Of a stretch of 64,000 nucleotides of DNA, positions 1 through 25,862 are shown one piece after another; position 1 is the first letter of the stretch; each line of letters begins with the position of its first letter. The notes under the pieces were generated by a model. The model saw only the letters and a program-made list of their open reading frames with translations, did not search any database and was not told the DNA's origin. The DNA is taken from assembly GCA_037379345.1 (NCBI GenBank), contig CM074513.1, forward strand, positions 60,677,195 through 60,741,194. Direction: 5' to 3'. The translations under genes and the position numbers were made by a program. Source of the DNA: Perna viridis. Lineage: Eukaryota.

Positions 1-1693
1 TTTATTGGTGAATTCTGTATTGATTTTATCATTCATTCTATTGTTGGTTATAACATTGTTACAAACACAGTTAGTGGATGATAATACTTTTTATTCCCCT
101 CTACTCTATAATCTGGTATGAATCTATGGAGTTAGAACCTTGATTCATGTAAAGGTAACATAATTTAGATGGGCTAATTCTTGAATTCTTAGGTTTAATT
201 TGAATTGGGTAACATGCCTCTATGTGTCTTTGTACTAACAAATTACAGCTCTTATATCTATTAGTGGAGAAGACTGCCATTGAATGTTGCTATAATCAAT
301 CAATTAATCAACCCAGTCTTGTAGACCTTGTATATAACTTGTTTATCTCAGTGTTCAGTGAAGCAGTAATAACACAGTATTTTGGCACTGTATTGAAAAA
401 TCTTATCTATCTGTGTCATCCTTTACTCTTCAAAACAAGTTGAAATTCTATCAAAGAAAATTCCAAATCTTTTCAATACTGAAAGTTATCATTTCCCTGT
501 TAAACAAATTCATATGCAAATTCTTTATACTAGAATGAATTCCTTTCATATCTATCCTAAAAATGAATATTCTATGGAGTTAAAGGAAAAATACATCCTT
601 ACAATAATATAACCATTTTACTTTGAATCGTTTAGTATAGAGATGGTTTAGTTGGATAAAATCTAAATATAAACTGAAGAGATAAATTTTCAGATTAGAA
701 TAAACTGGCCTTAAAAGGGGAAATGAATAAGTCTCATTGAGAAATATTCTTAAGAAAATACTGTGTAAGTAGTAATAATACAGTTACCAATTAGTACCAA
801 CTTATACATAGGGGTGAATGATATAAGGAGATTGGAACTTAAATCATTATTGGCTCTATACAAGGTCCAAATAAGCAATATTCTTATGGGCCTGTTTGTA
901 TAATGGTGGAGTGGATGGACTGCACTATAATGGACGAGGAAACGACTAATGTATAATTATGTCAGGGACGTTTAGGAAGGCATTTTAGAATATATCAGTT
1001 TTATGCAACAGATGTTGTGTAAAATATTTACTGTGATGTAATAAGGCACCTTAAATTGTCATCTGAGATGGAATTAACAAATCTATCAATGATTGATCAA
1101 TGTGGTACCAATCAAGTTATTGGGACTTCAATTAATTGACTTGGAATTTATTCTGTCTGCTGCAAGAGAAAAATACAGCTATTGGATGCACATGCACCTT
1201 GAATCAGACTGCTGAGAAATGCATTTAGTACACATAGGGATTTTAATTACATCTTGACAGAGAGGGTTATGTATATCTCTGTGGTATTTTACTGAAAGGA
1301 TTTATTAAAAATACATTTTGTACTTGTGTCAGTTCAATGTATAATTAAACTTCAAAGAGATAATGGATTAGTGAAATAAATTGAAACATATGGTGGGGTA
1401 TCATTTTATGGATGAATCATATTTTGTAGTGAAGGGAGAAGGACAGGTGACATTCTAGTAGTGTTGCAATGATTTTATATCAGACTTTAACAAGGAATGC
1501 TGAGTTGCCATGTATGATTGATTGTTAAAATGGTTCACACCCTGTCCTTTAAGTTCTTTCTGATCAATTTCTTAAAGAAAGAAAGTTGCTTCAAGTGTTC
1601 AAGGTTTATTGCTCTGATTTTTGGCATAATGATATTCAGAGACTGCTAAGAAAGTTGTATGAGGTGTAAAGTTTATAAATACAATCATCTAAA

Positions 1694-2071
1694 ATGAATG
1701 ATCACAAGGATTTACATCAAACACTAGAGAGTTTTTCTGATGATAACGCAGAAGTGAAATCAGGATTAGTGATTCACTTTGAAGATAATGGTAACACAGA
1801 TCAAAACTTGCAGAAATTTGATAATATCTGTCTATTTTATAACAATCAAGGAAAGGGAAATAACTCTATCAATGATAATAGTTACACCAGTAAAGAAGTG
1901 ACAAAATGTTTTGATAATAGTGAAAGTGAATGTGACAGTGAAATGACAGAAAATACTGACGGAACTATAGAGAAGACAGGCAGTCAGTCATCAGAGGACT
2001 GTCAGTCTGTGTGTGATCCTATGGAGGAAAGTACTGATGATCAATCTGTAACCATATCTAATATCTTTGAG
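1694..2071 (+). CDS. DAPK1: Putative alternative first coding exon of DAPK1 (126 aa acidic, Ser/Asp/Glu-rich, likely disordered)
   Basis: AAAATG start with an in-frame TAA at 1676 and no AG between them. Open for 126 codons with strong D/E/S/N bias and ends GAG|GTAAAA in phase 0, matching the phase-0 acceptor at 6022. Confidence 0.6.
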
Positions 2072-2239
2072 GTAAAATTCTGTAGCTTTCAGGTACATGT
2101 ATTTATATATATATATTAATGTATTGAGGTAAGACTTTGTAGAGATACTTGAAAACTGGTTCATTAAGACATAATAAATTGAAATGAAAAACAGAATCAA
2201 ATTTAGTATACTTTGATACAACAGTAAGTTTTGGTAAAA

Positions 2240-3220
2240 TAAATGTCAGAACCAGTTAATAAATGTACATGTCAGAACCAGATAATAAATGTACATGTCA
2301 GAACCAGTTAATAAATGTAACATGTCAGAACCAGTTAAAAAATGTACATGTCAGAACCAGTTAATAAATGTACATGTCAGAACCAGTTAATAAATGTAAC
2401 ATGTCAGAACCAGTTAATAAATCTAACATGTCAGAACCAGTTAATAAATGAACATGTCAGAACCAGTTAATAAATGTAACATGTCAGAACCAGTTAAAAA
2501 ATGTACATGTCAGAACCAGTTAATAAATCTAACATGCCAGAACCAGTTAATAAATCTAACATGTCAGAACCAGTTAAAAAATGTACATGTCAGAACCAGT
2601 TAATAAATGTAACATGTCAGAACCATTTAATAAATGTAACATGTCAGAACCAGTTAATAAATCTAACATGTCAGAACCAGTTAATAAATGTACATGTCAG
2701 AACCAGTTAATAAATGTAACATGTCAGAACCAGTTAATAAATCTAACATGTCAGAACCAGTTAATAAATGAACATGTCAGAACCAGTTAATAAATGTAAC
2801 ATGTCAGAACCAGTTAAAAAATGTACATGTCAGAACCAGTTAATAAATCTAACATGTCAGAACCAGTTAATAAATCTAACATGTCAGAACCAGTTAAAAA
2901 ATGTACATGTCAGAACCAGTTAATAAATGTAACATGTCAGAACCATTTAATAAATGTAACATGTCAGAACCAGTTAATAAATCTAACATGTCAGAACCAG
3001 TTAATAAATCTAACATGTCAGAACCAGTTAAAAAATGTACATGTCAGGACCAGTTAATGAATCTAACATGTCAGAACCAGTTAATAAATCTAACATGTCA
3101 GAACCAGTTAATAAATGTACATGTCAGAACCAGTTAAAAAATGTACATGTCAGAACCAGTTAATAAATCTAACATGTCAGAACCAGTTAATAAATGTACA
3201 TGTCAGAACCAGTTAATAAA
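2240..3220. repeat. Minisatellite, 26/27-bp unit ATGTCAGAACCAGTTAATAAATGT(A)AC
   Basis: About 36 tandem copies. The variant pattern recurs at 320 bp. Confidence 0.97.
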
Positions 3221-3689
3221 AGAATATATGTTTCAGAAGGACTTGTATTAAGTAGGGGTACTTGAAAAATGATAATGAATGTACCAAATACTTGTTGATT
3301 TTGGCTGTGTGTATGTTTAATTCACAGCAATCTGATTTTTGATTAGGTTTTGTTATGTATATGAACAAAATTCTAGATTGTTATTTCTCTAAACATAGAA
3401 ACAAATCCTAATAGTGCTTTGAATATAGAGTTGGTCATTAGTCAATATATTTATAGACAGGCCGAAATAGATCATTTATTTTCTGAGTTTAATAAACAAA
3501 CACCAGACACATATAATTATGGACTATAAAATGTATTGCTAATTTCAATGTTAAACTGATGTTTTAATTACTGATTGAGGTATCTGGTTGAGGCTAGATA
3601 GGAAATGCAGTGTTTACTGTTTTCTGTCAATTAGAAAATTGAAGCAGTAGTTACTTTATTACTCTTTCTTTGTAATTTTCAAAGATCTG

Positions 3690-4105
3690 AAGTGAGAGTT
3701 GAAGGTGAAATGAATGTTACTAACATTTTGAGATCTATAAAGTAGAGTTGAAGGTAAAATGATTGTTACTCAGGTTCAGTAGAAGGTGAAATGAATGTTT
3801 CTCAGTTCCAGAGATCATTGTAGAGTTTGTTTCTCAGGTTCAGAGATATTAGTTGGATTGAAGGTGAAATAATTGTTACTCAGGTTCAGTGATTATAGTA
3901 CAGTTGAAGGTGAAATGATTGTTATCCAGATTCAGAGATTATAGTACAGTTGAAGGTGAAATGATTGTTACCCAGATTCAGAGATTATAGTACAGTTGAA
4001 GGTGAAATGATTGCTACCCAGATTCAGAGATTATAGTACAGTTGAAGGTGAAATGATTATTAATCAGGTTCAGTAGAAGGTGAAATGATTGTTACTCATT
4101 TTCAG
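3690..4105. repeat. Minisatellite, ~46-bp unit (GTTGAAGGTGAAATGATTGTTAC..)
   Basis: Tandem copies, degenerate at the left edge. Confidence 0.9.
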
Positions 4106-5402
4106 ATTTTATGGAACTGGTTTTCTGTTACTGTTGATATTGGGTCCTGATATTGTCTGCTGCACTCTATTGTTCTGGTTGTATATAGATTATTTCAAAG
4201 AAATGTCATGTATTGTACAATCTTAACTTAAGTGTTATCATAAACAAATGTCAAGAATTTGGCCAAAGATCAGGAATTTATGTTAACTGTCAGTTTTACA
4301 ATCAAAATGACCTCTACAGTGATGTTATAATAGAGAGAATTTCAAGCATATGAAGGAAGGGCAGTTATTTTTTTTTTATTTTGCACACAGTATTTCTTGT
4401 TGCAACAAAATTTAGTTGATATTTACACAAAAACAAAGCTCTTAGCGACTGTAGCAATGAAAACAAATAATAAAGTGAGACACCTGAATGTAATCATGTT
4501 GTATTAATGAGTGATGATTATAATGTATTGATACAGTAGTCCTGATTAGATCTGGCAACACTAGAATCTTCAGTTAACATGATGGTAAGTTCTTATTCTT
4601 CTCACAGATAATTTGACCATTGAACTTAACACAGTAATAATTTATTTCATTGAAGATTGGAATGATTACCAGATACTTGAGTTTCTGTATAGCATTTAAT
4701 TCTGGCAAAGTTTTGAAGAACTGTCTAAAGTATGTCCATACTGGACAAATTATTTATATCAGAAAAACTAATTGATATATTCACTTCAGTTCATCTTCAT
4801 TCAGCCTCAGTACTGATTAACATCCCTCTGCTTCCCTGTTTTTTAGTGAGAGAAATGATTTGGTTATTTATAGAAACTTCCACTGCTGTTTTTTTTAATT
4901 TATTTTTGGGTGTTTTTTTCTTTTTTTTTTAATCCTTCATCTGTTGAATTAGTCACAGTTTCATTAAGATCATGCAGTATTATCAGTTAATATCCTCTTG
5001 GCATCTGTTCTAGTGTAATTATGTGGAAATTGTTGTTTGGAATTTTAAAATTTCTGGACTAAATCTAAGATGAACAAAAGTACTCATTGATGTGAAGGGA
5101 AACTTAGACTTAAGGTTTGACACTATATTTAAGCATCATGCTGATTTAGGTTGAACCCCAAATTTTACTGTTAAGAGTCTGACAGTTTCATCTTACAAAA
5201 TACATGATTGCTCATTTTAGACACATCTGTCTTCATCTAGGACTATTAAAAAAACATTTCAGGTAGTTGAGGATAAAATGTCTTAACAACTTTGGCCATG
5301 CTGAACCTATAGATCTTTGGTTGATATAGTTGGACAGATGAATAGTCAAGAGAAGTCTGTTGGATTTTGAAAATGTGATCTGCTATGTATATTCTTTTTG
5401 CA

Positions 5403-5780
5403 AATTACTTCAGTTAGAAATAGGGCGTATTCAGAATTACGTCAGTTAGAAATAGGGAGTATTCAGAATTACTTCAGTTAGAAATAGGGCGTATTCAGAA
5501 TTACATCAGTTAGAAATAAGGTGTGAATACGTCAGTTAGAAATAGGGCGTATTCAGAATTACGTAAGTTAGAAATAGGGCGTATTCAGAATTACATCAGT
5601 TAGAAATAAGGTGTGAATACGTCAGTTAGAAGTAGGGCGTATTCAGAATTATGTCAGTTAGAAATAGGGCGTATTCACAATTATGTCAGTTAGAAATAGG
5701 GCGTATTCACAATTACGTCAGTTAGAAATAGGGCGTATTCAGAATTACATCAGTTAGAAATAGGGTTTTATTCAGAATTA
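5403..5780. repeat. Minisatellite, 32-bp unit CAGTTAGAAATAGGGCGTATTCAGAATTACGT
   Basis: About 12 tandem copies. Confidence 0.95.
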
Positions 5781-6021
5781 AGGGGTGCTTTGTTTATTAG
5801 ATAATTGTTATTTGTTAAGTGTTTATTGTAGAATAGATATCATATAAACCTGTTAGAAAGATTGAGCTGTGCCAGTCAGTAGTTATAAAGTGTACATGTG
5901 ATCAACAGTTTAAAGCAGGGTATCATATATAATGTGTTACTGGGTATTATCTTTTCAGGTAATGACAAGTGTGTGACTTTCTTGGTGGAGGCATTGGAAT
6001 TAATGTACATTATATTTTCAG

Positions 6022-6141
6022 GAAAAGACTGAAAACTTTGTAATGGCTGCATTATTTGGTGCTTCAGAAGAAGGAAACTTACAAGGGATAAAAGATCTGG
6101 TAGAAATGGCTCAGAACATTGACTTATTGTCTACTAATAAG
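6022..6141 (+). CDS. DAPK1: DAPK1 exon: EKTENFVMAALFGASEEGNLQGIKDLVEMAQNIDLLSTNK (pre-ankyrin/first ankyrin-like)
   Basis: ttttcag acceptor and AAG|gtaaac donor, 120 nt. Resembles the vertebrate DAPK1 EEDSFVMKA..NK segment. Confidence 0.9.
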
Positions 6142-9100
6142 GTAAACATGCATTCAATAGCAAAAACACACATAAAGCACCTTTTTACTGGATGTCCATT
6201 ATCTTAAGTTCCAAGATCATTTTCTTTTAGGACAGTAAGTAGAATTTCTCAATAAAACAAAGTCTGTGAGTGAAGATCTCGCCTTCATGTGATATATGTA
6301 CAATTTTTCCCTCATCTGGGAGTGAAAATATTCCCTATATGCATGTGATGTCTACAAATTCTCCAAGTCTTGGAGTGAAAATCTTCCCATCATGCATGTG
6401 ATGTCTAGAAATTCTCAAACAAAGTCTTGGAGTGAAGGTCTTACCATCATGCATATGGTGTCCAGACATTCTTTCTCAAAGTCTTACAGTGAAGATCTCT
6501 CCTTCATGCATGTGATGTCTAGAAATTCTCACTCAAACTAAGTCTGGGAGTGAAGGTCTTCCCATCATGCATGTGATGTCTAGAAATTCTCACTCAAACA
6601 AAATCTCAGAGTGAAGATCTTCCCGTCATGCATATGATGTTCAAAAATTCTCTCTCAAACAGTCTTAGAGTGAAGATCTTCCCTTCATGCATGTGATCTC
6701 CAGAAATTATCTCTCAAAGTCTTAGAGTGAAGATCTTCCCATCATGCATGTGATGTCTAAAAATTCTCACTCAAACAGAGTCTTAGAGTAAAGATCTTCC
6801 CTTCATGCATGTGATGTCCAGATATTCTCACTCAAACAAAGTCTTAGAGTGACGGTCTTCCCATCATGCATGTGATGTCTAGAAATTCTCACTGAAACAA
6901 AATCATAGAGTGAAGATCTTCCCATCATGCATGTGATGTCTAGAAATTCTCACTCAAACAAAACCTGGGAGTGAAGATCTTCCCATCATGCATGTGATGT
7001 CTAGAAATTCTCCCTCTAACAAAGTGTGGTAGTGAAGATCTTCCCATCATGCATGTGATGTCTAGAAATTCTCCCTAAAACAAAGTCTTAAACTGAAGGT
7101 CTTCCCTTCATGCATGTGATGTCTAGAAATTCTCCCTCTAACAAAGTGTGGGAGTGAAGATCTTCCCATCATGCATGTGATGTCTAGAAATTCTCCCTAA
7201 AACAAAGTCTTAGACTGAAGGTCTTCCATTCATGCATGTGATGTCTAGAAATTCTCACTCATACAAAGTCTTAGAGTGAAGATCTCCCTTCTGATATGTC
7301 TATCAATTTATCTAAAACTACAATGAAAAGCATGGCCTCTGATACTCAAGTTTTTCACATAAATCTCCAAAACCGTTAGGTTTAGTCAAATTCTGACTGG
7401 GTAAAAGTGTTAAGTATAATGAATTCTATCAGTGTCAAATTTCTGTGTAAATCTGTTCAGTCATGTTGGAGTTTTGCCCTTTTTCAGTGTTTTTTTTTTC
7501 TCTATTTTAAATTTTTGTTAAAGCTTCTCTGACACTACTGGACCAAACTTGGTTTGAATGTTCCTTAGGATGTTTTGCATAGAATTCATCTGGAGATGTT
7601 TGACTCATCAAAAAAGCATGGCCACTGTTACTTAATATAGAACATAGGAGTCAGACCAAAGTTTTTTGCATACATTTCCAAAACTATTAGGATAAGCCAA
7701 ACTTGACATAGGGTAAAATGTTCAGCATGATGAGATCTCATAATCTTTGCTCAAATGTTTATGTAAATTTGTTATCCATGTTGGATTTATTGCCCTTTTG
7801 TTTGTTATTTTTGATGGTATTACTGAAAAAACTTTTTTCCTCAGAAAATACTGGACAGAATTGAATGAAAATTAATGTAGGAATTTTTATCCTAGAAAAA
7901 AACATGGTCGCTTTTACAATAGTAGCATGTTGCTTATCAAATCTTTAGAACCTGTATTTGTTGTTATTACTTTAAAAAATTGTGTTCTCTGAAACTGTTT
8001 AACAGATTCTTACCAAAAATTGTATATATGTTCCAGAGGGTATTGTGCACAAAACTTATGTGGGCATTAAACATGGCTGTGGTTACTAAGTATAGACTAT
8101 ATGGATCAAACAGTGTTTGTGTAATATTATGCTGTTGTCTTCGTTGTCTATAAACACCTAGTGGTTTTGCAATAACTTGAATATAAGTTGTCTGATCTTT
8201 ATCAATGATCAGAATCAATGTTTCAAACAACAAAAGGAAAGTTGGCATTGATTAAGAGGTTTATGGTCTCAACAGTTTTGGGGCCACACTAGGTTTGATC
8301 TGTCAGATGGAACATTTCAGAAAATAAACTTTTAGTGTTCAGTCAGCCAATGAGGTTTGAGGATTCAGGCTCCTGGGGCCTCTAGTTGAGTGGATGTTGT
8401 TGAAACTTTTTATAAAGGTTGGTAATCGTTTAATGAGTTGTACTTTTAACCAGAAATTCTTGGTAGATGATGCTTCCAAGAAAGGAAGTTCTAAATTAGA
8501 AAGGCTTCTCATGTACGGAGTCATTCTAAATGTTTAATGGATTTTATTGAAACTTTATATGAAAGTTCTTAATTATGTGGTGGTATGCAGAATGAGAGAA
8601 AATTATTGTTGTATTATTTCAAGGAAAGAATTTTCCATATTTTAGTCCAATAAGATGTAATACACTAACAGTACATATTATTGTTCTTTTTTCAGCATGG
8701 TGAAACAGCCCTGCATATGGCAGCCAGTGGTGGTCATACAGAAATTATAAAGTACCTCCAATCAAAAGGGGCAGATGTTGGTGTTAGAGATAAGGTAGTT
8801 TTTTTTTTAAACTTCTGTTTTATTTTAGTGGTACTGTTAAGTACCTTCAATCCAAAAATAGTACGTTGATATTATGTTTCATTTTAGAGAGGACCAAAGA
8901 ATACAGCACTATTTGATATAAAAAATAAAAACAAACAAATATGAAGGCTGTGACTATTTGGTTACAATCATCCAAAATACAAATTTACACAGTAAGCTGG
9001 TTATGTGACAGTAGAGATTGATTCTTATGGTCTCCTTTGCAGAATGGAGACAGTTGTATATACTGGGCAGCAAGACAAGGTCATATGGAGGTTGTAAGTT

Positions 9101-12100
9101 ACCTTAGAGAAGAAAATGTTTCCCTGGACACTCAGAATAGGGTAACTACCTTTACTGACCATTAATGATAACTAAAATAAAGTGACACCACATAATCATC
9201 ACATTCTAGTAACTGGTGTGTCGCCACTATATATAGATGAGGATTTAAATAGTGGGAGTGTATGAGGCTGCACAGAGCAGTTTCACTTGTTTGAGCTAAA
9301 TTTGCATACAAAGTTATTGTCAAATCAATGTCAATAAAAATTAAAAGAAAAGTAATGTTTTAAGCCAAAAAAGTTTTTAAAAAGTTTTTTATATTAGAAG
9401 CAAGTGACATCTTGCCAACATCAAAGCAGTGTAACATTTTGATTCACTCAGTGATCATATATCACTTGTAAATACAGGCAGTGCATTTTGGCTGCTCAAG
9501 TAGAACAGTTACAGTGCAAAAATTATAGAAACTGAATGCAAATTAGTCACAAAGGACTGTTGGTCAAAAAGTCCTCTAGTTTCCAAATTAGGTGTTTTTA
9601 ATCATATTTCGCATTATTTTGAAAGTTACTGTATGGAAAATGCTTAATATGCGTATGTGCAACTACTTATTTTTGCCAAAAAAATACTGATCATGGTATA
9701 AGTGAAAATAAATACACCAGGAAAATAAGTATAATTATGAATATCATTGGCCCTCTTGTTTTTGGATGTTCCTTTGGCCATATCGTTTTTCTAGATATAA
9801 GCTCTCCATTTAAAATATTGAAGGATTTTATTCCGTAGTCTCTGAACCCTTAGGAAATGACAAAATGTTTTGATACACCAAAATACCTGTTGAGGCTGGC
9901 ATTCCATTAAATTTACCATAAAACATATACCTTATTTAGTAAATTTTTGCTATGCACTCAAGTTTTAGGACACACTTCACTCTGAGTATTTATATTGCTA
10001 CTGGTTCTGAGTATTAAATAGCACGAGGGTCTGTCTATTATTGCTTGTTCATTTGACTCAGGTCAAAGTTCATTAGCAACATTGGGTCGTATGACTTTAA
10101 GTTAATGTTGATATTTCATTTTTTGGCTTGAAATCTTTTTCACAAAATTGATGTACTTATGAAAATTATTATAAAAAAACTAGTTACAGAAGATGTAGAA
10201 AGAAAACCAAGAAACATTATTTTTTTTATACTGTTTTATTAGTCTGGTGAATCAGCTTTACATGTAGCTGCTAGGTATGGACATGCAGCTATAACAACCT
10301 ACCTGGTCACAGAAGGTGCTAATCTCAATTTACAGGACACAGTAAGTATTCTGTCTGATTATGGTAGGATTTTTACATAGGTTTTTATAAATTCAAAGTT
10401 TTCATTCTATCAGTTTACTGAATCATACCTTTATTTTGTGTGTGCTAGTAGCTAGTTATTCTGCTTTTTTTTGAGAATTTCTGTGAAATTTTGAAAGACA
10501 ATTGTTCTTAGAAAATTCTACATTCTATTGACTTTAAAGTAACTTTTTGTAAGAAAAAACTGTTATCTTACTCATTTGTTACAGCTAGGAGATACAGCTT
10601 TACACAGTGCCGCGTGGCATGGCTTTAATCAAATTGTAGCATCTTTATCTTCTGGTGGAGCAAACCTTGACATTCAGAACAAGGTATTAAAACTTCTCAT
10701 GTAGTCTGTATTTGTTATGTTAGGTAACTAAAAATATTTTATAAAAATTCTGTTGGTATAAGGGGATTTTTTTTTTTATGTTCATGTAATTTACTCAAAT
10801 CACTAATTTTAACAAATCTTTTGACAAAAATGAATTTTCATCCTAAGTTGCATATGCATTCAAGCCATTTGTATAATTTGAACAACTTGAGTTAAGAGTA
10901 AAGCTGTTTGTCTTTAATTCTACACTTTGGACTGATAGGATTTGTTTTGCATGATAGGGCAAGATTAGTCAGTCCATGAGTATATTTAGTACTTAAACTA
11001 AGGTGAGCCTGCCAAGAAATAATTTCTTAAGAAATCCATTGTTCATACAACATTTCCTTGCGTATGTTTTGGAAAAGAATGATATTCTGTTTTAGGATGG
11101 TGAAACTGCACTTCATTGTGCTGCAGCTAGAGGGTTTCTGGATAGTGTGAAGACCTTGTTGGATTGTGGATCTCCAATCAATCAAGTAGATAAGGTAAAT
11201 AGATTTATGTTAGGTTGTATGATGGGGTTTGATGTGTGAGTAGATTGGATAGGGGTGGATAGAGGGACTTGTCAGATGGGCATTTGATAGTGTAAAGAAA
11301 AATGTTGGATTGTGGGTCTCCATTGAATGAAGTAAGTAAAAAATGTTATCGGTAGAAGTGTCTTAAGGGGTTCTTATATAATGTATTGTGGTATTCATTT
11401 AACAAAGTCAATAAAAGGAAGGGAATTGAGAATATTCAATTTAATTGTGAGTCTACATACATACATGAAACAACAAAAAAGCACTAAATAACATGATTTT
11501 ACAACCAATTCATGGATAAAATGGTAGTCTTCTGCTTTACTTCAAACATGTGTTTTAACAAAAGAATATCCCAAGACAAAATTAATGAAAACAAAACAAA
11601 ACAAAACAAAAAAGAACAAAGAAAGATATATATAAGAACTATTTTGTATTTTTTTACAGAGAGGCTGCACAGCTCTTCACTTGGCCTGTAGTAGAAGACA
11701 TAGTAATATAGCTATGTTACTGTTACATGCAGGATGTCTAATGGATACACAAGACAAGGTCTACCATATTGTTGTCAGCCAGCATTATGTCAAATGAACA
11801 CTGTAGAAGTAGATTTAGAGGATTTCAACCAGACCTGTTCCATATTTGATTATCTACAATCCTTTCCAATTAAATGATCAAAGGGTTGATGGTCAAAGTT
11901 ACAGAAACTAATTATAATTTCCAAACACTTTTAAGACAATGTTATGTAAAGGTTGTGATCAGATTTGTGCTTTAGCGTGGGGGCACAGAAACAGCGATGC
12001 TTAATCTGACTTCATTGGTCAAATTTTTCTCCATTAATATGTGTAGATAGGGTTAGTCATTAGTATGATAATGAAGTAATATACATTTTTGTGATATTAA

Positions 12101-15100
12101 AGGAAGGCTTTTATCTGATGTAAAGCAGTTGTTATTGTTATTACTAACGAAAGACAGGACAATTTTGTACAATACTTATGTTATTTCTACATTTTTGTTT
12201 GATTATTTGAATAATGATTTTTTTTTCTGCAGGAAGCTGGTGACAGTCCTCTACATTCTGCTGTGAAGGAAGGAATGACTGCTGTAGTTCAGACCATGTG
12301 TGCGTATGGAGTTCTTCCTAATGTTGTTAATAAGGTATTCAAAGTATATATGTATATAAAAATGTTTTTAAAGTTTATGCTGTGTAGCTATCATAGGTAC
12401 ATGGATATAATGTCTACAACATATATTTTGTAAGTACCGTATTTTCCGGACTATAAGTCGATACTTTTTTTTAGCAAAGTAAACTGCAATCAACAAAAGC
12501 TGTCACTCAAACAGTCTAACCAGCGATTGAATTCAAATATTATTGATCATTGCCGGTATCATTTATGAATGATTACAACGATGTTAATAAAAACTTTGAA
12601 ACTGTTAAAATATATAAACAAACTCTAGAAGATATGTTAACAAAACTCTTTTTTAACTGGAAAGACATTTTCGAGTGTTCAGAGTTATCAGTCGTTTGAT
12701 ATGCAAATTTGTATGTTGTAACACATTTGCATGTGGCACAAGTTATAATCAGTTAAGGTGTTATCAAAATGGCTAATTGCAACCAAATTTACAGGTAACA
12801 ATTTTTTTTATTGAATTTCGAAATACCAGGTAATATTGTTTATTAATAACTGCTCGTTTATTATGACCTATTCATCAATTTCACACATAGGTGACCACAC
12901 TTGACATGTTTACGATTTCGTACACCTGATGATGTAATAGTATACAAAATAACATCACTGGAATAATATGCTGCTCAACTCGGATCGCCGCTGACACCTA
13001 CGATTTAAATGCACACGTCTGACCCTCAACTTATCTTGCAAATTCGCTTTACCAATGTTTTTTTTGTCAATTTTGGTCAATATTAGGCAAATTGACTTGT
13101 AGTCCGGAAAATATAGTATGAGTTGAGTGATAATGTCCAGTATTGTCAAGAAAGTATAAATAAGTTGATTAATTGTCCTGTGTTAACCTGTAAAGTCTCC
13201 TTCATTATTTTTGTACGGATATTTTATTCTCTTGATGACATCATAGGTTATAATCTTTAGACCATAATTCATTTTTGCAATAGAAACATGTTTGTGGGAA
13301 TATTCTTAAAAAATCAAAATATTAATGTTTGCCATTTTTAGGAGGGTTTAACCCCTTTACATATTGCCAGTAAAGATGGACTGTCAGAAATTGTGAGAGC
13401 TTTGTTATTAAGGGGAGCTAATCCAGATTTACATTACAAGGTATGTTGTGGTTGTCTTATCATTAATTCTGCACACCTTGAGTTCACTCTTAGTTTTAGT
13501 TAAGTTGTTATATTCTGATTTACACATGTCATGTCCATCTAAAGAATTCAGAATGAGTTAAAGACTGATACAATACAAAAAAACATGCTGATGATCATTT
13601 TAAATGACATGTATGTGGAAGGGTAAATAAGGATAATGCAATCTAGAAGACAAGATATTGTTTTTAAACAAAATTTTGATAATGCAATTTAGAAGACACA
13701 ATATTGTTTTATTAACAACAAATGTACAAAATTCACATTCAGTTTGTCTAGCTGTACATGTTTTTAAAAATATCCAAGATTTAATAAGGCTTCCATTTTT
13801 TGTTGCTATCCAATATCAACTTCCTGTACTAGTGGGGGGTATGCATAGTGTGCAACTTTATCTTGAGCTTGTCTGGCTATACATGTTTTAAAATAATTCC
13901 CAGAATTATGTATGCTTCCAATTATAGTTTTTATAATTATTTATAAGTCTAACATCTTATGTTGGTAGTAGAAATACTTTTTTTTTTTATAGTTTTCATA
14001 CATATGCTATATGAATATAATTTTGAGCACAGATGCACAGAAATGGGGACATTTTCTTTTCCATGTGATGCTGGGATGGGTGGGTACAAGTTTTAGAATG
14101 TATGTGCTTAATATATTGGTCAATTGAAAGAGTTATACCATTTGTGTTGCATCAGAACCCAGTAGACATCATAGCCTCAAAGAAGTTAAAAATAAACTTT
14201 TCCATCAAGTGAATTCATGAGGTTCATTAAACATTTAGATGAAACTTAATAAAGTATTTAATTCAACTGCTTGATCTCCTTTTGTCTTCTCCATAATGTC
14301 TATTCAAATATTTTTTATTGAACACCAGTATTAATTTATTTATTTTATCAGGATGGTGTTACAGCAGAAATAATGGCATTAGCTCAGGGCTACACTGATA
14401 TTGCAGAAATTCTCAACAAAGTCAAAGGGGTATATAAATGTGTTTTACTGTCATCTGTTGTATAAAAATATTCTTTAAGAATAAATTGATACTTCACATG
14501 TATCAAATAATCTGCTGAAACAAAATACACATACTGGTAAATACATGTATGATTTCGGTTGGTCAAAACCACTTTAATAAGAAACTTATTATATGTTTAC
14601 AGGTCATTTTATTTACCTTATTTTATTGGTAAAAAATAAACTTTGTTCGGGTTGATAAATATCACTGGTTAATTGATGGACAAAGCTTTTAATGTATAAA
14701 ATGTTGTAAAAGGAATGTTACTATTGATTTGCTGACTTTGTAGGACAAGGGAGAAATCTATGTGAGTCAGTTAATTCCTCAGAACCAGCCATTGTCGAGA
14801 ATTAAGTTGAAATTGTTTGGTGCTAGTGGCGTAGGAAAGACAACATTTATAGAGTCCATGAAATGTGGCATGTTTTCTGGTTTCTTCAGAAGAAGACTAA
14901 CAAGTCAATCTTCTACTTCTATAACCAGAGGTAAAATCTTTTTCTATTAGATATATATACTTGTGCTTCTGGTTGCTTTTTTTTCTTCTGTTCAAAAATT
15001 TCCATACCAATAAATAAAAAAACATGTTGCGCTAACATGGTGACTTGATATATGTGTGATACTTCTATAACATGTACAACCATGACCCTTAAAAAGAACT

Positions 15101-18100
15101 TTCAAATAAAATATAAATTTGTTGAGGAAAAACTGAAGATGCAGATTTATTTTATTCTATTTTTTTTTTATGAAAAAACATGTTTGGTTATTTGTTAACA
15201 TCAGATTTCTCTGCAAATTCAAACTAGCCTTGTCTGTTATCTATGACAATTATGAATTTCAATGATTAACACATATGTCTTTTGTTGCAGAATATGAAAA
15301 TAATGAAAAGCCTTCTAAGTCCTTTATGATGACATTTTTGTGAACTTTACAATTTCAATCAAGTTTTAGTATTTATGAATAGTTTGCATTTCAGAGCTTA
15401 CTTGATGACCTGTGTACATGTGTTGAAGACCTTTAAGTGATACCAAAAGTATTTACTATTTTGATTTAGGATATATGTTGTTGTGTACCTTCATACCCAT
15501 TCTTTTTTCCTTCATTGTATGCTTTATTTGACAGGTCGTGATGGTAAACTAACCAGACAATACAGTCTGCCTATACCTCTGACCTACAGTGTTAATAATC
15601 CTACCTACACCAAGGGTATCAGTGTCCAGCAGGCACAAATAACAGGTTTGTTGTTTATGGTGTCAACAGTATTTTATTATTTTTTTATCTAAATTTATTT
15701 CAAGTAGTTTACTGATAATGAGGCTCTAAGAAAAAAAATTTCTTTTCAGTTTTGAGATAACAGGTGGTCAGTCTAATTTAAATTATCCTTCTGTCAGAAT
15801 TATCTCCCAGTGATGCATTGTTAACAATAAAACTTGAAATGTTAAACAGAATCCTTTTAGTCTAGAAAAATATTTCAAAAACCTATATGTAAGGGTTATC
15901 TGCACTGTATCATTGTTAAATTATGTTTTTACTGATTCTAACTGACTCTCTTGTTAATAAATTAAGTATTAATTAAGTCTATTATATTTCGTCCTACTTC
16001 CTGACAATACTTTTTATCTTGGCATTTGCATAAAGACCTTGTTTTACTTAAATTTAATTATATGTTTTCTATAAATTCTGTTGGTTAACATACAGACAAC
16101 TGTGTGATCAATTGAATTAATAAGTTCTTCACTAAGGTACTCTATTCCATGTTTTCTAGTATGCCAGTGGCATTTTATATAGTTCTTCGCAAAGTTCAAG
16201 ATTTATGAATCTCGCGTAACTTTATGTGCACTTCATTGCTTTTTGTCTTGGCATAAGCATGAAGACATTGTTTTACTTAGACATATTTTGATATATTTTT
16301 ACTAATTCCTGTTGGACATGATTTTTTTATTGATATTTTGGTTTGAGTAAACAAGGTGTGCTTATCAGTTGCTTTTGGATTTTGAACTAGCTTACATAAA
16401 ATGTGAGTACTCCTTCTAGGTAGATACAGCTTTTTGTCCTGTTAATTATTAAAATAATATCGATCTCAAGAGTTAAATCCAAAGTCTACAGATTTTTATA
16501 GTTTGTTTTTTGTTGTATTTTCCAACCACTGTTCCAGATTAGGGGAGGATTGGACACTCATGAACATGTTAAACCCCAACACATGCTTTATGTGCCTGTC
16601 CCAAGCACCCATAGTCCAGTTATTGTTGTTAATGTTTAATGTTCATTGTTATTCCTTTTATGTTTTTTTTTTCAGTTTTCGTCTTTTATTAATAGTTTCA
16701 CTTCACTTATTGTGGAGCCTTTTACAGCTTGCTTTATGGTTTGGATTTTGCCCATCATTGATGACCATGTGGCAACTTGTAGAAGTTCAATTGTTCAATG
16801 TTTGGCTCTTGGTGGATGACTGTGTCATTGGCAATCATACCACATCTCTTATTTTTATAATGTCTGTCCATCTGCTTTAACATGTTGAATCCCTTAAACA
16901 ATAAACTTCAAACTTCACACATATTATTGTTATAATAGTATAACAGTCTGTACTTTTTGAAGAAAATTTGATTCTTAGTTTCAGGGTTATGGGACTTTTT
17001 CTTATTATATATTTTTTCACATTTTACACTTCAACCTGTATTGCTCCTCACATATCTCACATGGTACAAAAATCCCTGTATTGGCCCTCACACATCTCAC
17101 ATGCTACATGGATAACAGCATACCTGATTATATGTGATATAAAAACTCCATTTCTTTCCATCATAGGGACTAGTATATCATGTGCTTATATTGCAGCTGT
17201 TTATTAGTGATGTTATTTCCCACTGGTTGTAAGTAGATAATACTTGGTACATAGCTTTGGCATGTTGAATTATAAGTCTCTCCTATTTTCAGTTATGTCT
17301 GGTAACAAACTCTTGATCGAAGGGAGTAGGACTATTGAGCAGAAAAATCTTTTTTTTCTCCTATTACTGGGCAGGGTGAGTATTTAAAATCATAATTGGG
17401 TTTTATTTTGCAGGTGTTGGAGATTTGAGTATTTGGGATTTTTCGGGATATGAACCATACTATATGTTGTATGACCATTTTATGGGAGACACAAACTGTA
17501 TCAATGTTGTCATGTTTAACCTCTGTGATGAAATGGCAGAGCAGGTGGCTCAGGTTATTTTTTGGATTGGTTTTATCAAAGGCAGAATTTCACCACAGTT
17601 ACCTTTAGGTAAGTTCAGAAAGTGATAGTGTTCCCTTGTATGACTGTGGTATAAACAACATGGTGATAAATTAATAAAATAATCCCACCAACCCCCTTCC
17701 CCCTACCAAAAAAAAATAAAAAAGAAAAATCAGTAGCATTTTGTTATCCAGTCTCATTTACATGTAATTTAATGTTAGATGAAGTATTTGAAGATGACAT
17801 AATAATGAAATTAAATTGACATGTCAATATATAAGAATGAGCTAGTACTAGAAAAAAATGTTTTTATAAATATTAAAAGCTACATGATCTAATTAGCATA
17901 AAGCATAAAGTATATATCCCAGAAAGTTGTATTTCAGATTATTTTAGAACAGAATGTTTTTTTCCTGGAGGTACATTTATTTCAACACTAGCAGTGCTTT
18001 TTTAGTCTATTTTAAACATTTTGACAGATTATTTAGAGAAGTTAAATTGTCAGTAGTTTATAAGTTAAAACCTGTGTTTAACACTAAAGGTTTCAGAATG

Positions 18101-20643
18101 AAACAATAAACAGCTGGAAATAAATAACAATCATCAATTATTTTTTTTAGAGATTTAGGATCACAATATTATCTTATTTCATAGTAAAAAATCTGTGTTT
18201 CTTAGGTTACTGTGGTAAACTCCCGGTGAGACCAAAGGTCGTACTCATAGCAACTCATGCTGACAAGGTGAAATGCCCTAAAAACTCTAGAGGAGAGCAT
18301 GTTGCTACAGATAACATATACACAGTATACAACAGAGCTAGAGAAATGTTTGGTTCTGACATAGAGCTGGTGGATAGGATCTTCATCATTGATGCTCATA
18401 TCGCCTCATCTCATGACATGAAAGCTGTCAAACATCAACTTTATGAAATTAAATCTCACATATCAAAGGTACCAGTATTTATATTTTACAGTATACAGAT
18501 CCAGATACTCGTTTGAATTTTAATTGAACATGTGTCCTAATGTTTTTTTTTTATATGCACTTAAGTTTAGGTAAGACATTTAGATGAAAATTTTAAAATC
18601 AAATATGTATATAATTTTAAAAATCATATTAAAAACAATTTTTGAAAATATATATACCAATTTATTATATTTTATAGGTTCTTCCAAAGTCCACTAAATT
18701 TTTTGAATCCATGGTAACACAGCTTACCTCTTGGAGACGATCATCTTCTTCATTTCCTGTGTTGTCATGGCAACAGTTTGTTGACCATGTAAGATCTAAA
18801 GTGAATCCATTAGCTGGGGATGATCATATGAAACTTCTGGTCCAACAACTTCAATTGTCAGGAGAGGTATGTATGTATTCAGAATGTCCTGACACACTCC
18901 AGCTTTTGATACAAATATTTTTTTGAAAATGAAATATAGCCTAATGAAATAATTAACATACAATATCTAGTTAGTATTACTTCATAAGGATAACAACAAA
19001 ACTACCGAACACTAATCTGATCCATGATGAGGTCAAGTTCAAATTGAATCTTGCAAAATAGATATTACACCATCAGAGCAACTGGTACTGCAATGACCTG
19101 AAACCTGACAAGTTAGATACTGAATGTTTGAAACTATTCTTGAACTATTGACCTTATGTAGTAAGGTAAAGGTATTGGGGTATGTCTATTGACCTTATGT
19201 AGTAAGGTAAAGGTATTGGGGTATGTCTATTGGACTTAAAATTTATCCAATCTCAACTTCAGTGATTATGAGCATCTGTTCCAGTGTGTAGCTGATTTAG
19301 CTTTTAATTAGTCAATAATTATTATATGAAAACTAAGCAGTTAAAGCAGTATTTTACCTTTTATTAACTTAATAACACTTATTTTATTGATATGTATAGA
19401 GAATGTGTAATTTCAGGTGGTGTACTTAGAAAGTGACACAGGCCAAGATCTAGTGATTCTGAATCCAAACTGGTTATGTAGTGACATTATAGGACACTTG
19501 ATTTCTCATGATAAGATCATACAGTCACGGATCACTGGATGTTTTACAGTCGATGATTTTCAGCTGATGTATCCAGAGACTGATGCTCTAGACCTTCTAC
19601 AAGTCCTGGAAACTTTAGAGGTCTCTACACAGTGTGATTCTGAAGGTGAAATAGAATATGAATTTCCATGTTTAAACTTTGTAGAAACATTGAATGGTCT
19701 GTGGCAGAGAGATCTAAAAAGATTTGGTGATGGTGTGTATGGTGGTGTTAGGATACAGTCTGGACCATTCTATGTAGAACAGTTAGTCCATCTATTCCCT
19801 AGAATCCAAGTCCTTCTAAGAAGGACTGTACTACATGAGACTGAAGACCCTGAAGCTGAGCTCTATCAGTGGCACTATGGGTCTAAATATTGTTGTGGTG
19901 ACTTGGAGGGTATTATAATGATGGATCCTCTGTATGATTGTATAGAAATCAAAGTACGAGGACCTAATGATAAGCAAACACAACTGTTTTATTTTCTGGA
20001 GGATTTCATTAATGTTGTAGAACAAGTGATCCTTAATGTATGTCCTGGTATTTGTACAGAACGACATGTACTCAGTAGCTTAGAACTTAAGGAACATCAT
20101 AAAAATATTAGAGCATATTCACCAAAGGAAATGCTTAAAATGCAGCTACAAAAGAAAACATGTTTGACTCTGTGTGATTCTAAAACTGAGGAGTTTTCAG
20201 ACATTGTTTGTATGGGTTCACATGAAATTGTTCAGAATATTTGTCTTGGTGTTGATCTCCCAGTGTCTCATTTGACAATACACACTCGGCAGCGACTGTC
20301 TCAGGTTCTAGATCCTCCAGATAAGATGGGAAGAGACTGGTGTTTACTGGCAGTATCATTAGGTCTAGAACATTTACTTCCTATCTTAGATAAAGTGGAT
20401 GGTAGTATTGAGAGTAAAACGGACAGGGTTTTAGTGGAGTGGTCTAAAGTGTGTTCTAATCCTACCATTGGACAGTTAATCCTAAAACTACGGGAACTTC
20501 ATAGAGAGGATGCTATTGAAGTCATCCTACAATCAGCTCCTATATTTAAAGTGGTTGTTTATGAAGACCACAGTACAGATGACAGTCAGATTGCTGGACT
20601 AAACACTGACTCAACTAACACTTTGTCTAATCTGTCCAGATGA
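6022..20643 (+). CDS. DAPK1: Death-associated protein kinase 1 (ankyrin-ROC-COR-death domain portion), spliced from 16 exons; kinase exons not in window
   Basis: Phase-consistent GT-AG exon chain totalling 3165 nt (1054 aa + stop). Contains ankyrin repeats, P-loop GASGVGKT, WDFSG (G3), ATHAD (G4), the death domain motif LDPPDKMGRDWCLLAVSLGL and a Ser/Thr-rich tail ending SR. This architecture is diagnostic of DAPK1. Confidence 0.95.
6240..7295. repeat. Minisatellite, ~61-bp unit (AGTGAAGATCTTCCCATCATGCATGTGATGTCTAGAAATTCTC..)
   Basis: About 17 tandem copies. Confidence 0.95.
8696..8794 (+). CDS. DAPK1: DAPK1 ankyrin exon HGETALHMAASGGHTEIIKYLQSKGADVGVRDK
   Basis: 99 nt, phase 0/0, ankyrin consensus. 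Confidence 0.95.
9043..9141 (+). CDS. DAPK1: DAPK1 ankyrin exon NGDSCIYWAARQGHMEVVSYLREENVSLDTQNR
   Basis: 99 nt, tttgcag acceptor and gtaact donor. Confidence 0.93.
10243..10341 (+). CDS. DAPK1: DAPK1 ankyrin exon SGESALHVAARYGHAAITTYLVTEGANLNLQDT
   Basis: 99 nt, tag acceptor and gtaagt donor. Confidence 0.93.
10585..10683 (+). CDS. DAPK1: DAPK1 ankyrin exon LGDTALHSAAWHGFNQIVASLSSGGANLDIQNK
   Basis: 99 nt, cag acceptor and gtatta donor. Confidence 0.93.
11096..11194 (+). CDS. DAPK1: DAPK1 ankyrin exon DGETALHCAAARGFLDSVKTLLDCGSPINQVDK
   Basis: 99 nt, tttag acceptor and gtaaat donor. Confidence 0.93.
11660..11758 (+). CDS. DAPK1: DAPK1 ankyrin exon RGCTALHLACSRRHSNIAMLLLHAGCLMDTQDK
   Basis: 99 nt, ttttacag acceptor and gtctac donor. 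Confidence 0.92.
12233..12334 (+). CDS. DAPK1: DAPK1 ankyrin exon EAGDSPLHSAVKEGMTAVVQTMCAYGVLPNVVNK
   Basis: 102 nt, ctgcag acceptor and gtattc donor. Confidence 0.92.
12437..13116. mobile_element. Non-autonomous Tc1/mariner (pogo-like) MITE, about 680 bp
   Basis: TA|CCGTATTTTCCGGACTATAAGTCGA ... TTGACTTGTAGTCCGGAAAATATAG|TA: ~25-bp imperfect TIRs with a TA target-site duplication and no transposase ORF. Confidence 0.85.
13342..13440 (+). CDS. DAPK1: DAPK1 ankyrin exon EGLTPLHIASKDGLSEIVRALLLRGANPDLHYK
   Basis: 99 nt, tttttag acceptor and gtatgt donor. Confidence 0.93.
14352..14429 (+). CDS. DAPK1: DAPK1 exon DGVTAEIMALAQGYTDIAEILNKVKG (last ankyrin cap)
   Basis: 78 nt, cag acceptor and gtatat donor. 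Confidence 0.9.
14744..14930 (+). CDS. DAPK1: DAPK1 exon, start of ROC domain with P-loop (RIKLKLFGASGVGKTTFIES)
   Basis: 187 nt, phase 0/1, G1 motif. Confidence 0.95.
15535..15645 (+). CDS. DAPK1: DAPK1 ROC exon (..NNPTYTKGISVQQAQIT)
   Basis: 111 nt, phase 1/1, contains switch I-like T-x-G-I. Confidence 0.9.
16525..16860 (+). mobile_element. SINE-like dispersed repeat fragment (resembles molluscan Nin-domain SINEs, from recall)
   Basis: ccagattaggggagg..ttaaacccc..gtgcctgtcccaag core and a tcattggcaatcataccacatctcttattttta tail. A related core occurs at 34580-34660. Confidence 0.45.
17414..17608 (+). CDS. DAPK1: DAPK1 ROC exon (GVGDLSIWDFSGYEPYY..)
   Basis: 195 nt, phase 1/1, G3 motif DFSG. 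Confidence 0.95.
18206..18468 (+). CDS. DAPK1: DAPK1 ROC exon (VVLIATHAD..IIDAH), copy 1
   Basis: 263 nt, phase 1/0, G4/G5 motifs. Confidence 0.95.
18678..18866 (+). CDS. DAPK1: DAPK1 COR exon (VLPKST..LQLSGE), copy 1
   Basis: 189 nt, phase 0/0. Confidence 0.95.
19417..20643 (+). CDS. DAPK1: DAPK1 terminal exon: COR plus death domain plus Ser-rich tail, copy 1
   Basis: tttcag acceptor, 408 codons to TGA, death domain motif. Confidence 0.96.
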   Translation: MVYLESDTGQDLVILNPNWLCSDIIGHLISHDKIIQSRITGCFTVDDFQLMYPETDALDLLQVLETLEVSTQCDSEGEIEYEFPCLNFVETLNGLWQRDLKRFGDGVYGGVRIQSGPFYVEQLVHLFPRIQVLLRRTVLHETEDPEAELYQWHYGSKYCCGDLEGIIMMDPLYDCIEIKVRGPNDKQTQLFYFLEDFINVVEQVILNVCPGICTERHVLSSLELKEHHKNIRAYSPKEMLKMQLQKKTCLTLCDSKTEEFSDIVCMGSHEIVQNICLGVDLPVSHLTIHTRQRLSQVLDPPDKMGRDWCLLAVSLGLEHLLPILDKVDGSIESKTDRVLVEWSKVCSNPTIGQLILKLRELHREDAIEVILQSAPIFKVVVYEDHSTDDSQIAGLNTDSTNTLSNLSR

Positions 20644-23600
20644 CTAGGCAGACTTTCTTAGATGTTAATATTCAGTCATAAAAGACATGATAAATACCAA
20701 TCAAACATAAATTCTATGTTCCTGGTGATATTAATAGCCTTGCTATCATATGGCAAATTATTTTGTATAATCATAGTTAATTCTTGATTTAATTGTTGAA
20801 GCTTATTTGAATTTTTTACAAGAAGCATCAACAACTTTTCCATTCACATTCAAATTGTATTTCATTAATGTGATTGCAGATTTATTTTTATCTTTAAAAT
20901 GTTTTAAATGAAAATTTACATTTTTATTTCAAGCAATCTTTTTTATACTTTGTCTACTTATTTCTTTTTCTATAAATATAGATGTATCAGAAAACCTTCC
21001 TATATTTATTTAAGAAAGCCATGAAGTTGTGTTATGTTTTCATCAATGATTTGTTAGATTTATAATTCATTTTTGTTGCTGAACATAATAACTGCTGAGA
21101 CTTCCATGCAATGATAATGACAATACTCACTATTGTCTGTTGGGAGTCAACTTATTAACAATTTCTGATGTAATTTTGCAATAACAACAATCTTATTCTT
21201 ATGTTTTTAATAACTTAATTAAGACTATTATAATTTTAGTTTTAGCTTGCTACATAAAAATCTACTTTAGAATGAATTTGCAAATAGGAAAGTAGATGTA
21301 AAGTTATTTAAAGGAATGTGCCCTTTAAAACTGTAAAATTTGGTGCACTTTGTTGTGCACACTATGTTGTTTTTTTCAAACCCTTATTTTTCGTTATATT
21401 GTTTGGTGGTTAAAGCTTACTATATAAGGTTCTTATGTCAGGCATTTCTTTACTAAGTTGAGTAACTGATTTCAGTTTATTAATCTATTGAAAATATTTT
21501 TGGAAATATCCTTTAGTTGTTTTCTGCTAATCTGATGCTACTTCAGAACAAACATGATTAAAATGTGATTATGATTTAATCATTGGAAGTATTTATAGTT
21601 GTGTGATCAGTTATAATACTTTAATTTTTTTTATGATTTCTGAGCAGGAAAATCCTATTGTGAGCTTTTCTCACAGCTTTTATATGGCTGCAAAAAAAAG
21701 CAGTCCTATTATGTTATGATCCTGTCATTGTCGGCATTGTTGGTATTTTTTAAATTACTATGCGATAGTTGAAGTTTACCAAATGTCATTAAATTTTGAT
21801 GTATTGTTACTTGCTGTGGTTTTTATTTGACATGAGGTAACTAGCTAACAAATTTTGATTTTTTTCATTCCTTCTGGAAGTCTTTCCCTGCATTTTCAAT
21901 CAGTATTTGAATATTGCTCTTCTTTTTGGAGTAAGAAGAGGTCATAGGGAACAAAAACAATTTTAGGAAGACTATTTCAACAAATTTTCATCAGATTTTA
22001 ATGAATTTTTGGGGGAAAAATTTCTCCTCTTTACAAGGGGTTTAAGCAGTATGCTAGCAAATTTACTTTATCATTAAATGTTTTTGGGGTTCAAAGTGAT
22101 CCATGAAAGCATCCTGACAGTAGGACATTTATCTTAAATTGAATTTCAAAATATTGTGCTAATATTGTTTTTCAAACCAATTGTGTCCTCAATTAACTCC
22201 CTATATGTTCAAGTGTGTCAAAAACTGATATTGTGTTCTCACTTGGCCCAAGTGAATGTAGTTCAACTGGCTGTGGTCATATCATGCTGTGCTCAGCAAA
22301 ACATTTTTTACTCTAGTTTCAGTTACAATCAGATTGTCTGCTTAACATTAGTTTCTTAACAACATAAATTATACATGTGGTGATTCAGCAGTTTTGTGTA
22401 TCATAGTGCAAAAATGTGACATATAATCTGAAATCTGTAAAGTACTATAAAGAAAACTAAAACTGTATTCATAAAAAGAATACATGTTAACCATGCCTTA
22501 TCAGTGGTATTGTCCATATATGTGTTATTGCTAACCCAATCAATCTTATTGTGGGTACATCTTATGGCTCAACATACCCCATTGGTATTATCTTTGGAAG
22601 AGTACCTGATGAGATCTGTGTAACTAATTGTGATCTATCATGGATCACCGATCAGTTTCCTATCAATCTTTGACCCATTCAACCCACATCCATTTCCTAT
22701 CATGTGACTGATGAATGGTAAATATATTTTACTGATTAATTTAATTACATTTAAATTTTTTTTTATTGAAATAGTGTGGATTTAATGGCATTATATTAGG
22801 TTCATGGCAATAAAAAATCTGTAATTTTCATGTATGAATCATCTGTCATTTTACATGATCAGATTGATTATCGATCTTGCAGTGGTCATTGATCCGTCAA
22901 ATAGTTCCAGAGATCAGTTAAGGGACTATATGGGTAACTACATCCCATTAGTGGTTAATATGTATGCTTGATTTAAATCTTGACATCTTTCAGAATGTCA
23001 ATATGAAACCAAGTAATAGTTCAGTAAATGGAACTTTCTTCCTAGCATTGTTTTCTTTAATTAGACAATGATATAAATCAGTGATGATATTATCATTCTA
23101 CCTCCTTTCTATTCTAATAATGGTAGGTAGTGCTGAATCTTTGTATTGTTTAATTGTTAAGTACTTTATGCTTCTGGAATGTGGGAAAGTTATATACCAA
23201 AGGCATTATAATGTATATATCTAATAACCAAATGCATAATTTACCTACATCTGACTAAAAGTCTTTCAGCTTTAGTTCTAGCATTGTATTTTAAGGTATA
23301 TGATTTTATAAGATTTTAAGTTATTTCATAATAAAAAAAGAAGATGTTTTGTTATTGTTTCTGTCATAATTGAGTAGAACCATGTTTTCCTCAGCTTTTA
23401 TTATTATTGTAAATAGTATTTCTTATTTCATTTACTGTCCCAGTTTACTTTTATGTTTTTTGAGTCTATAAGAGCAACTATTTTGTTGTACCTGTGTGTT
23501 ATGTTGCTTTGGGGACATTTGCAGTCTGCCTGGTCGCCTGAGGGTTTCTCGTTCATTAAAGACTAATGAGTGGCCTTGACCTGACAATTTTCTTCCTAAT

Positions 23601-25599: not shown

Positions 25600-25862
25600 G
25601 TTACTGTGGTAAACTCCCGGTGAGACCAAAGGTCGTACTCATAGCAACTCATGCTGACAAGGTGAAATGCCCTAAAAACTCTAGAGGAGAGCATGTTGCT
25701 ACAGATAACATATACACAGTATACAACAGAGCTAGAGAAATGTTTGGTTCTGACATAGAGCTGGTGGATAGGATCTTCATCATTGATGCTCATGTCGCCT
25801 CATCTCATGACATGAAAGCTGTCAAACATCAACTGTATGAAATTAAATCTCACATATCAAAG
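25600..25862 (+). CDS. DAPK1: Duplicated DAPK1 ROC exon (copy 2; I->V in DAH[I/V]A)
   Basis: Intact splice sites and reading frame. One nonsynonymous and one synonymous difference from copy 1 were seen. Confidence 0.8.

Follow-up and report, generated by a model that had tools for sequence, protein, structure and literature searches.

Introduction

DAPK1 has been studied almost wholly as a kinase, and what is held about its roles apart from catalysis comes from engineered truncations and a single short human variant. Here we describe a DAPK1 gene of the mussel Perna viridis whose 3' part occupies the first 21 kb of a stretch of 64,000 nucleotides (contig CM074513.1, positions 60,677,195 to 60,741,194 of the forward strand; referred to below as the window, upstream of which coordinates are negative), and in which an acidic exon at 1694..2071 offers an alternative coding start. 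Taken as a whole, we hold it moderately probable that this is an intact DAPK1 with a conserved alternative start for a kinase-less product of 1180 amino acids, likely made from an internal promoter and likely dominant negative.

Among described systems, the engineered C. elegans DAPK-1(delta kinase + CaM domain) shares the domain content of the mussel product and, according to the available sections of that report, occurs in motile puncta and is dominant negative; it differs in being an artificial transgene without an isoform-specific tail, with an effect in sensitised mutants only (PMC5053806). Human s-DAPK-1 is, like the mussel product, a natural kinase-less product that starts in a DAPK1 intron, and it lowers full-length DAPK1. 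As far as the accessible parts of the reports go, however, it starts in intron 13-14, comprises 337 amino acids with partial ankyrin repeats and a P-loop, carries a unique C-terminal tail, ends in intron 20-21 and has no death domain (PMC12192072, PMC4917528). The mussel product has all ankyrin exons, ROC-COR and a death domain over its 1180 amino acids, and its identification with s-DAPK-1 was thus rejected. A kinase-less Roco architecture, in which a ROC-COR GTPase is combined with a repeat domain of leucine-rich repeats, is presumably that of human MASL1; we take the latter to be a separate gene, however, whereas the mussel product has ankyrins and a death domain and comes, as one isoform, from a gene that also encodes a kinase. 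Human DAPK1-215 is reported, in the available portion of its source, to act on mRNA stability (PMC11744996).

Kinase-less DAPK1 isoforms with the same junction, the same motif, a mostly acidic N-terminus and an ankyrin-ROC-COR-death body are already annotated in other molluscs, namely Mytilus californianus X5 (XP_052098512.1), M. galloprovincialis X5 (XP_076103535.1), M. coruscus (CAC5416768.1), Octopus bimaculoides (XP_014776681.1), Pecten maximus X3, Haliotis rubra X3, Littorina X2 and Biomphalaria glabrata X4; the tails of the Mytilus isoforms have 170 amino acids as against 126 here. A literature search found no study of an invertebrate kinase-less DAPK1 isoform or of the motif, supplements lying outside the search so that an earlier mention is possible, and the accessible passages of an account of how DAP kinases evolved did not deal with invertebrate forms that lack the kinase (PMC3050894). 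The isoform appears real; it is conserved and annotated, and apparently undescribed.

Results and Discussion

The alternative first coding exon (1694..2071, plus strand) begins with the ATG at 1694, in TAAAATGA, and its frame of 126 codons remains open as far as the donor GAG/GTAAAA at 2071, in phase 0, while a TAA stop at 1676..1678 on the same strand closes the frame 5' of the ATG. Direct reading bore out the sequence-only reading on this point, which had described the acidic frame, its upstream stop and a phase-0 donor fitting an exon at 6022. If left unspliced, the frame would have 141 codons, with a stop at 2119. The 126 amino acids, which are predicted to be disordered, include 28 D+E against 7 K+R, with D/E/S/N making up 47%, and matched no Pfam family. 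They end in a junction motif, T-I-S-N-I-F-E (2051..2071, plus strand), which is preceded by an acidic stretch and is recognised as conserved by comparison with mollusc kinase-less proteins. At least one contig (run X2 record 16) runs without a break into the exon from likely 5' untranslated sequence (1517..1693, plus strand). Because of its conservation, detailed below, the acidic exon is judged to be more than a chance open reading frame, for which its length by itself would be modest evidence.

Downstream of the donor, a phase-0 intron with GT..AG ends (2072..6021, plus strand, drawn from the sequence and from RNA-contig ends) contains three tandem-repeat blocks at 2243-3220, 3858-4073 and 5403-5780. 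It leads to the first shared exon (6022..6141, plus strand), whose acceptor, by phase and homology, fits both the calmodulin (CaM)-regulatory exon and the acidic exon; the boundary 6021/6022 is in phase 0 and reading continues EKTENFVMAALF. All on the plus strand, there follow nine ankyrin-repeat exons (8696..14429; homology and Pfam), five exons for ROC and the start of COR, with the P-loop GASGVGKT and a DFSG motif (14744..18866; homology and joined frame), and the last coding exon, which carries COR, the death domain and the stop (19417..20643; homology and Pfam Death). Joined to these 16 GT-AG exons (6022-20643), the acidic exon encodes a stop-free ankyrin-ROC-COR-death-domain protein of 1180 amino acids with its P-loop, just as the earlier estimate of about 1180 had it. 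On Mytilus orthologues Pfam placed Ank and Death above the cut-off and COR-A and Roc below it, and Death was also matched on the last DAPK1 exon of the window. No kinase domain was found in the kinase-less product, as judged from the acidic exon, without a Pfam match, and from the Mytilus orthologue P0107, without a Pkinase match.

The 200 kb upstream of the window were searched by tblastn with full-length Mytilus DAPK1 as query. Eight kinase and CaM-regulatory exons were located at -28,034 to -11,520, and the first coding exon of the kinase form at -43,524. Joined, the nine exons encode 341 amino acids without a stop, 89% identical to Mytilus DAPK1 (P0002), with the catalytic motifs HLDLKPEN, DFG and APE intact, canonical splice sites and the same strand throughout. 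DAPK-type kinases have a basic loop and lack the HRD arginine, the latter as stated in the available part of PMC4917528, and the best solved-structure matches of P0002 were DAPK2/DAPK1. The CaM-regulatory exon stops 11,520 bases before the window, in phase 0, and fits the acceptor at 6022, and since the kinase and CaM exons are stop-free and lead to that same acceptor, the acidic exon lies inside an intron of an intact gene, 17.5 kb long, between the CaM-regulatory exon and the ankyrin exons. The full-length kinase-bearing product of the locus has 1395 amino acids. With kinase, CaM segment, ankyrin repeats, ROC with P-loop, COR and death domain all found, the gene is, by its encoded domains, a DAPK1 orthologue.

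These exons settle what the sequence-only reading had left as an alternative, a locus without a kinase in which the acidic exon would be the sole start. It had correctly seen no kinase or CaM-binding exon in 1-6021, and the window as a whole holds no kinase exon, as such a locus would; the tblastn search that it had proposed, however, placed them all upstream, nine intact kinase/CaM exons 11.5-43.5 kb from the window, complete, in frame and ending in phase 0. Loss of the kinase is thus refuted at the DNA level and keeps a negligible probability. The accompanying claim, that the junction follows the kinase and CaM-regulatory region, agrees with the phase-0 end of the CaM exon.

Two observations concern the upstream part of the gene. 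The first portion of the CaM-regulatory segment is carried by a 90-nucleotide exon (-15293 to -15204), which annotated isoforms of Mytilus, Pecten, Argopecten and Mercenaria skip, being 30 amino acids shorter; such an omission could give a deregulated kinase. The intron also contains high-copy dispersed repeats (L022 3341-4008 and 4677-6680; window about -4400 to -1100), probably transposon remnants, which attract thousands of contigs.

Conservation of the acidic exon is of two kinds. With the N-terminal parts of two Mytilus proteins, M. coruscus DAPK and isoform X5 of M. californianus, it shares 41% identity from Met1 to the junction, and searches with the exon alone returned Mytilus-like sequences only (one protein among 71 candidates; two matches including its own unspliced translation). 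Outside mussels the tail cannot be aligned and only its end is kept: often an acidic run, then T-[IL]-[SDE]-[NT]-[VI]-F, then the shared E/D-K-A-E/D-N-F-V, while upstream of the motif the tail changes freely and ranges from 27 to 292 amino acids among orthologues. Fifteen kinase-less proteins carried the motif, and the 14 mollusc species represented were three Mytilus, three scallops, Haliotis, Gigantopelta, Babylonia, Littorina, Nucella, two Biomphalaria and Octopus; this is a count of proteins returned by the searches, two of them excluded, and not a survey, and Mercenaria, Mya, Dreissena, Pinctada and Solemya entered the set through kinase-bearing representatives only. In the Nucella kinase-less protein, possibly a paralogue, the junction diverges. 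When a profile of the last 11 residues, built from 8 non-mytilid molluscs, was run over the intron, the peptide ending at 2071 ranked first of 16,274 windows (z 6.2; runner-up 4.4). The unspliced Mytilus-like translation P0152 passes from the motif into V, as the GT donor predicts. A search aimed at deuterostome DAPK1 gave none among the matches listed, which ankyrin proteins dominated, and the conservation set is thus without vertebrates. A PP2A-B56 LxxIxE site was considered as the conserved function of the motif and rejected, as it fits 7 of 13 orthologues.

From the junction to the end, kinase-bearing and motif-bearing kinase-less proteins were letter-identical in 12/12 mollusc pairs from 11 species, and are therefore isoforms of one gene; the same identity was seen in 3/3 pairs from Lingula, Panonychus and Centruroides, which have other N-termini. 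The motif itself was found in none of the 84 kinase-bearing proteins (0/84), which, with the exon's own conserved start codon and upstream-closed frame, fits an alternative first exon. This bears on whether the exon might instead be a cassette or poison exon downstream of the kinase exons, which would lengthen the linker or end the kinase frame early. Weak in-frame AG sites do occur within the exon, and splicing to an acceptor 5' of the ATG would bring in a stop behind the CaM exon; however, the motif never accompanies a kinase, homology starts at Met1, the frame is closed at 1676 and every orthologue of the exon is annotated as an N-terminus, so that a cassette is very improbable.

Twenty of the 24 sequencing runs listed, presumed to be of RNA, contain the stretch, and four of them, one per study, were examined over 10 kb ending just past the donor. 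In run X5 (record 32) a contig of 708 letters follows the acidic exon for 272 letters and leaves the genome at 2076, and in run X2 (record 16) a contig of 582 letters covers 1517-2076 (L022 9277-9836) unbroken through the ATG, followed by 22 loose letters. Both contigs end five bases beyond the donor with one mismatch, and a join to 6022 predicts the same (GTAAA as against GAAAA); the pattern of four matching bases in five was given only by the 6022 exon among the 16 downstream exons, and by 15 of 1165 AG sites. The splice 2071>6022 is thus supported indirectly. Taken with the annotated homologous isoforms and the conservation of the motif, these contig ends uphold the proposal of a kinase-less isoform from an exon in the calmodulin-ankyrin intron, and the isoform is very probably real and translated.

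Several points nevertheless weigh against this reading. None of the runs is recorded as RNA, and the join to 6022 was deduced from the contig ends. The X1 contig crosses the donor unspliced and the X3 contig stops 13 bases short of it. Similar low-depth contigs cover other parts of the intron, which indicates nascent RNA or DNA and leaves the start site unreadable. Frames from an ATG of at least 126 codons arose in 41/1000 simulated introns and of at least 141 codons in 16/1000, making length alone weak evidence, and, with 12 further ATGs between 1337 and 1693, translation from a long leader left unspliced would be poor. Moreover, the isoforms of other species in RefSeq and GenBank are automatic models and not characterised proteins.

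An internal promoter likely drives the acidic exon. Fewer contigs cover L022 7683 to 8350 than its surroundings, with cover returning before the ATG is reached, and this thinning might mark the start of transcription, although contigs cannot show starts. The same protein would be made if transcription began further up in the intron and non-coding leader exons were spliced to an acceptor 5' of the ATG, the acidic exon then being the first to code but preceded by others in the transcript. Pyrimidine-rich AG sites at 1553 and 1577, the many ATGs upstream of 1694 and the sharing of one kinase-less protein by several transcript accessions (two in Pecten, three each in Biomphalaria and Argopecten) would suit such leaders. 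The X2 contig, however, runs unspliced from 1517 across both 1553 and 1577, and no splice joint into the region was seen among the joints listed, 230 more lying beyond those, so that we regard leader exons as rather unlikely.

AlphaFold2 models of the Haliotis and M. coruscus isoforms gave the tail a predicted local distance difference test (pLDDT) score below 50, and the acidic tail is accordingly predicted to be disordered, as had been proposed for the segment that stands in place of the kinase. The ankyrin, ROC-COR and death domains were confidently folded in the Haliotis model (mean pLDDT 81); the M. coruscus model was poorer (64), its annotation being without a ROC exon. In both models a low-confidence helix starts at the residue after the motif Thr and is continuous with helix one of the ankyrin region. 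Most likely, T-[IL]-x-[NT]-[VI]-F begins an amphipathic helix that would extend the first ankyrin helix and offer a docking surface. A complex prediction of the Mytilus kinase and CaM region with the acidic motif segment returned a score of 0.00 and counts neither way.

In the mechanism that we propose, the starting point is the conserved alternative coding start in the intron after the CaM-regulatory exon, by which the acidic tail replaces the kinase. The product would keep the P-loop, COR and death domain and would lose catalysis and calcium/calmodulin control; with GTP binding, oligomerisation, cytoskeletal transport and death-domain contacts presumably retained, it would enter the same complexes as the kinase form and dilute or destabilise full-length DAPK1. 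Such a dominant-negative brake is favoured because, in the available parts of the reports, human DAPK1 binds GTP via ROC and its dimers persist without kinase activity (PMC3458246), the isolated human death domain reduces tumour necrosis factor-receptor death and kinase-less s-DAPK-1 destabilises or lowers full-length DAPK1 (PMC4917528), and engineered worm DAPK-1 without the kinase and CaM segments behaves as a dominant negative (PMC5053806). Given a real isoform, we put the chance that this is its main function at about even. On the other side of the balance, wild-type worms showed no phenotype when given the truncations, and no dominant-negative effect came from a point mutant with a dead kinase, again in the sections available (PMC5053806). 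The motif helix has a pLDDT below 50 in both models, a pure dominant negative would not need a conserved isoform-specific motif, and the tick, spider and Tachypleus clusters described below suggest that kinase-less forms can work alone.

The main rival to a dominant-negative role, appreciably less probable but to be taken seriously, is that the same isoform is an independent, kinase-free Roco scaffold in cytoskeletal, death-receptor or immune complexes, whose tail and motif recruit a partner of their own without antagonism of the kinase. Retention of the motif in bivalves, gastropods and a cephalopod, while the tail varies in length, would be expected of such a scaffold, and so would the fact that chelicerates, crustaceans and a brachiopod place different kinase-less starts at this junction. 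Kinase-bearing members were listed in 0/5 for the Ornithodoros cluster, 0/11 for Ixodes, 0/12 examined for the spider cluster (13 listed) and 0/4 for Tachypleus, although the clusters are not listed in full and a single gene may have been divided in annotation. In contrast, scorpion and spider-mite loci carry both forms, and the worm truncation test, in the part available, showed antagonism of DAPK-1 (PMC5053806).

Other kinase-less starts were noted alongside that of the molluscs. A second acidic N-terminus (TVYF..NFVVVS) at the same junction occurs in 19 proteins, chelicerate where named (P0060-P0063, P0070, P0072, P0076, P0093, P0100, P0157, P0164, P0166, P0169-P0172, P0175, P0177 and P0183). 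A third and very short class, MY-[GSP]-x-[YF]-x-N-L, is found in gastropods and the tick Ornithodoros (P0015, P0018, P0027, P0028, P0041, P0124, P0153 and P0154); an exon of the MY-x-S-Y-x-N-L type was sought in the mussel intron and none was found, the best score being 18 as against 27-36 for true members. The brachiopod Lingula anatina X4 (P0194) is kinase-less, with an acidic tail of 181 amino acids whose hydrophobic end, SCIF, loosely resembles the mollusc motif. Tentatively, and with some doubt, DAPK1 could be an old two-product gene of protostomes, the intron behind the calmodulin exon having provided a second start since long ago, with conserved docking motifs that differ by lineage (molluscs with T-[IL]-x-[NT]-[VI]-F, chelicerates with TVYF..NFVVVS and both with the short MY-x-x-Y-x-N-L), in which the kinase-free form would be the sole one in ticks and spiders and the undescribed mollusc motif would have its own partner.

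Bivalve, gastropod and cephalopod lineages split in the early Palaeozoic, and a natural, near-full-length kinase-less form in bivalves, gastropods and a cephalopod would show a selected role for the ankyrin-ROC-COR-death body. Such an isoform would be a natural substrate for testing ROC GTPase function without its kinase, and gene-level DAPK1 counts in shellfish immunity and stress studies would mix two proteins that may act oppositely. The conservation of the end of the exon across three mollusc classes raises the biological weight of the finding, while existing annotation lowers its novelty. Alternative starts that drop domains are a common device, and because of this and of the automatic annotation already in place, the resulting importance is limited.

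Towards the 3' end of the gene, the last DAPK1 exon shares 89% identity with Mytilus DAPK1 and 67% with that of scallop. A search of its own genome, of 723 Mb, with this exon gave at least two matches among five candidates, both inside the window, and the DAPK1-type gene here is, on this comparison, a single locus and not a paralogue; the exon matches twice because of a local duplication. The latter is a 7.4-kb tandem duplicate (17969-25363 and 25363-32765, 99.5% identical) that comprises the last three coding exons of DAPK1 and 3' flank, and is either a recent duplication or an assembly artefact. Further downstream, a minus-strand exon at 38247-38351 matches the TACC C-terminal coiled coil, and additional coiled-coil open reading frames, at 36-43 kb, point to a TACC gene in convergent orientation to DAPK1.

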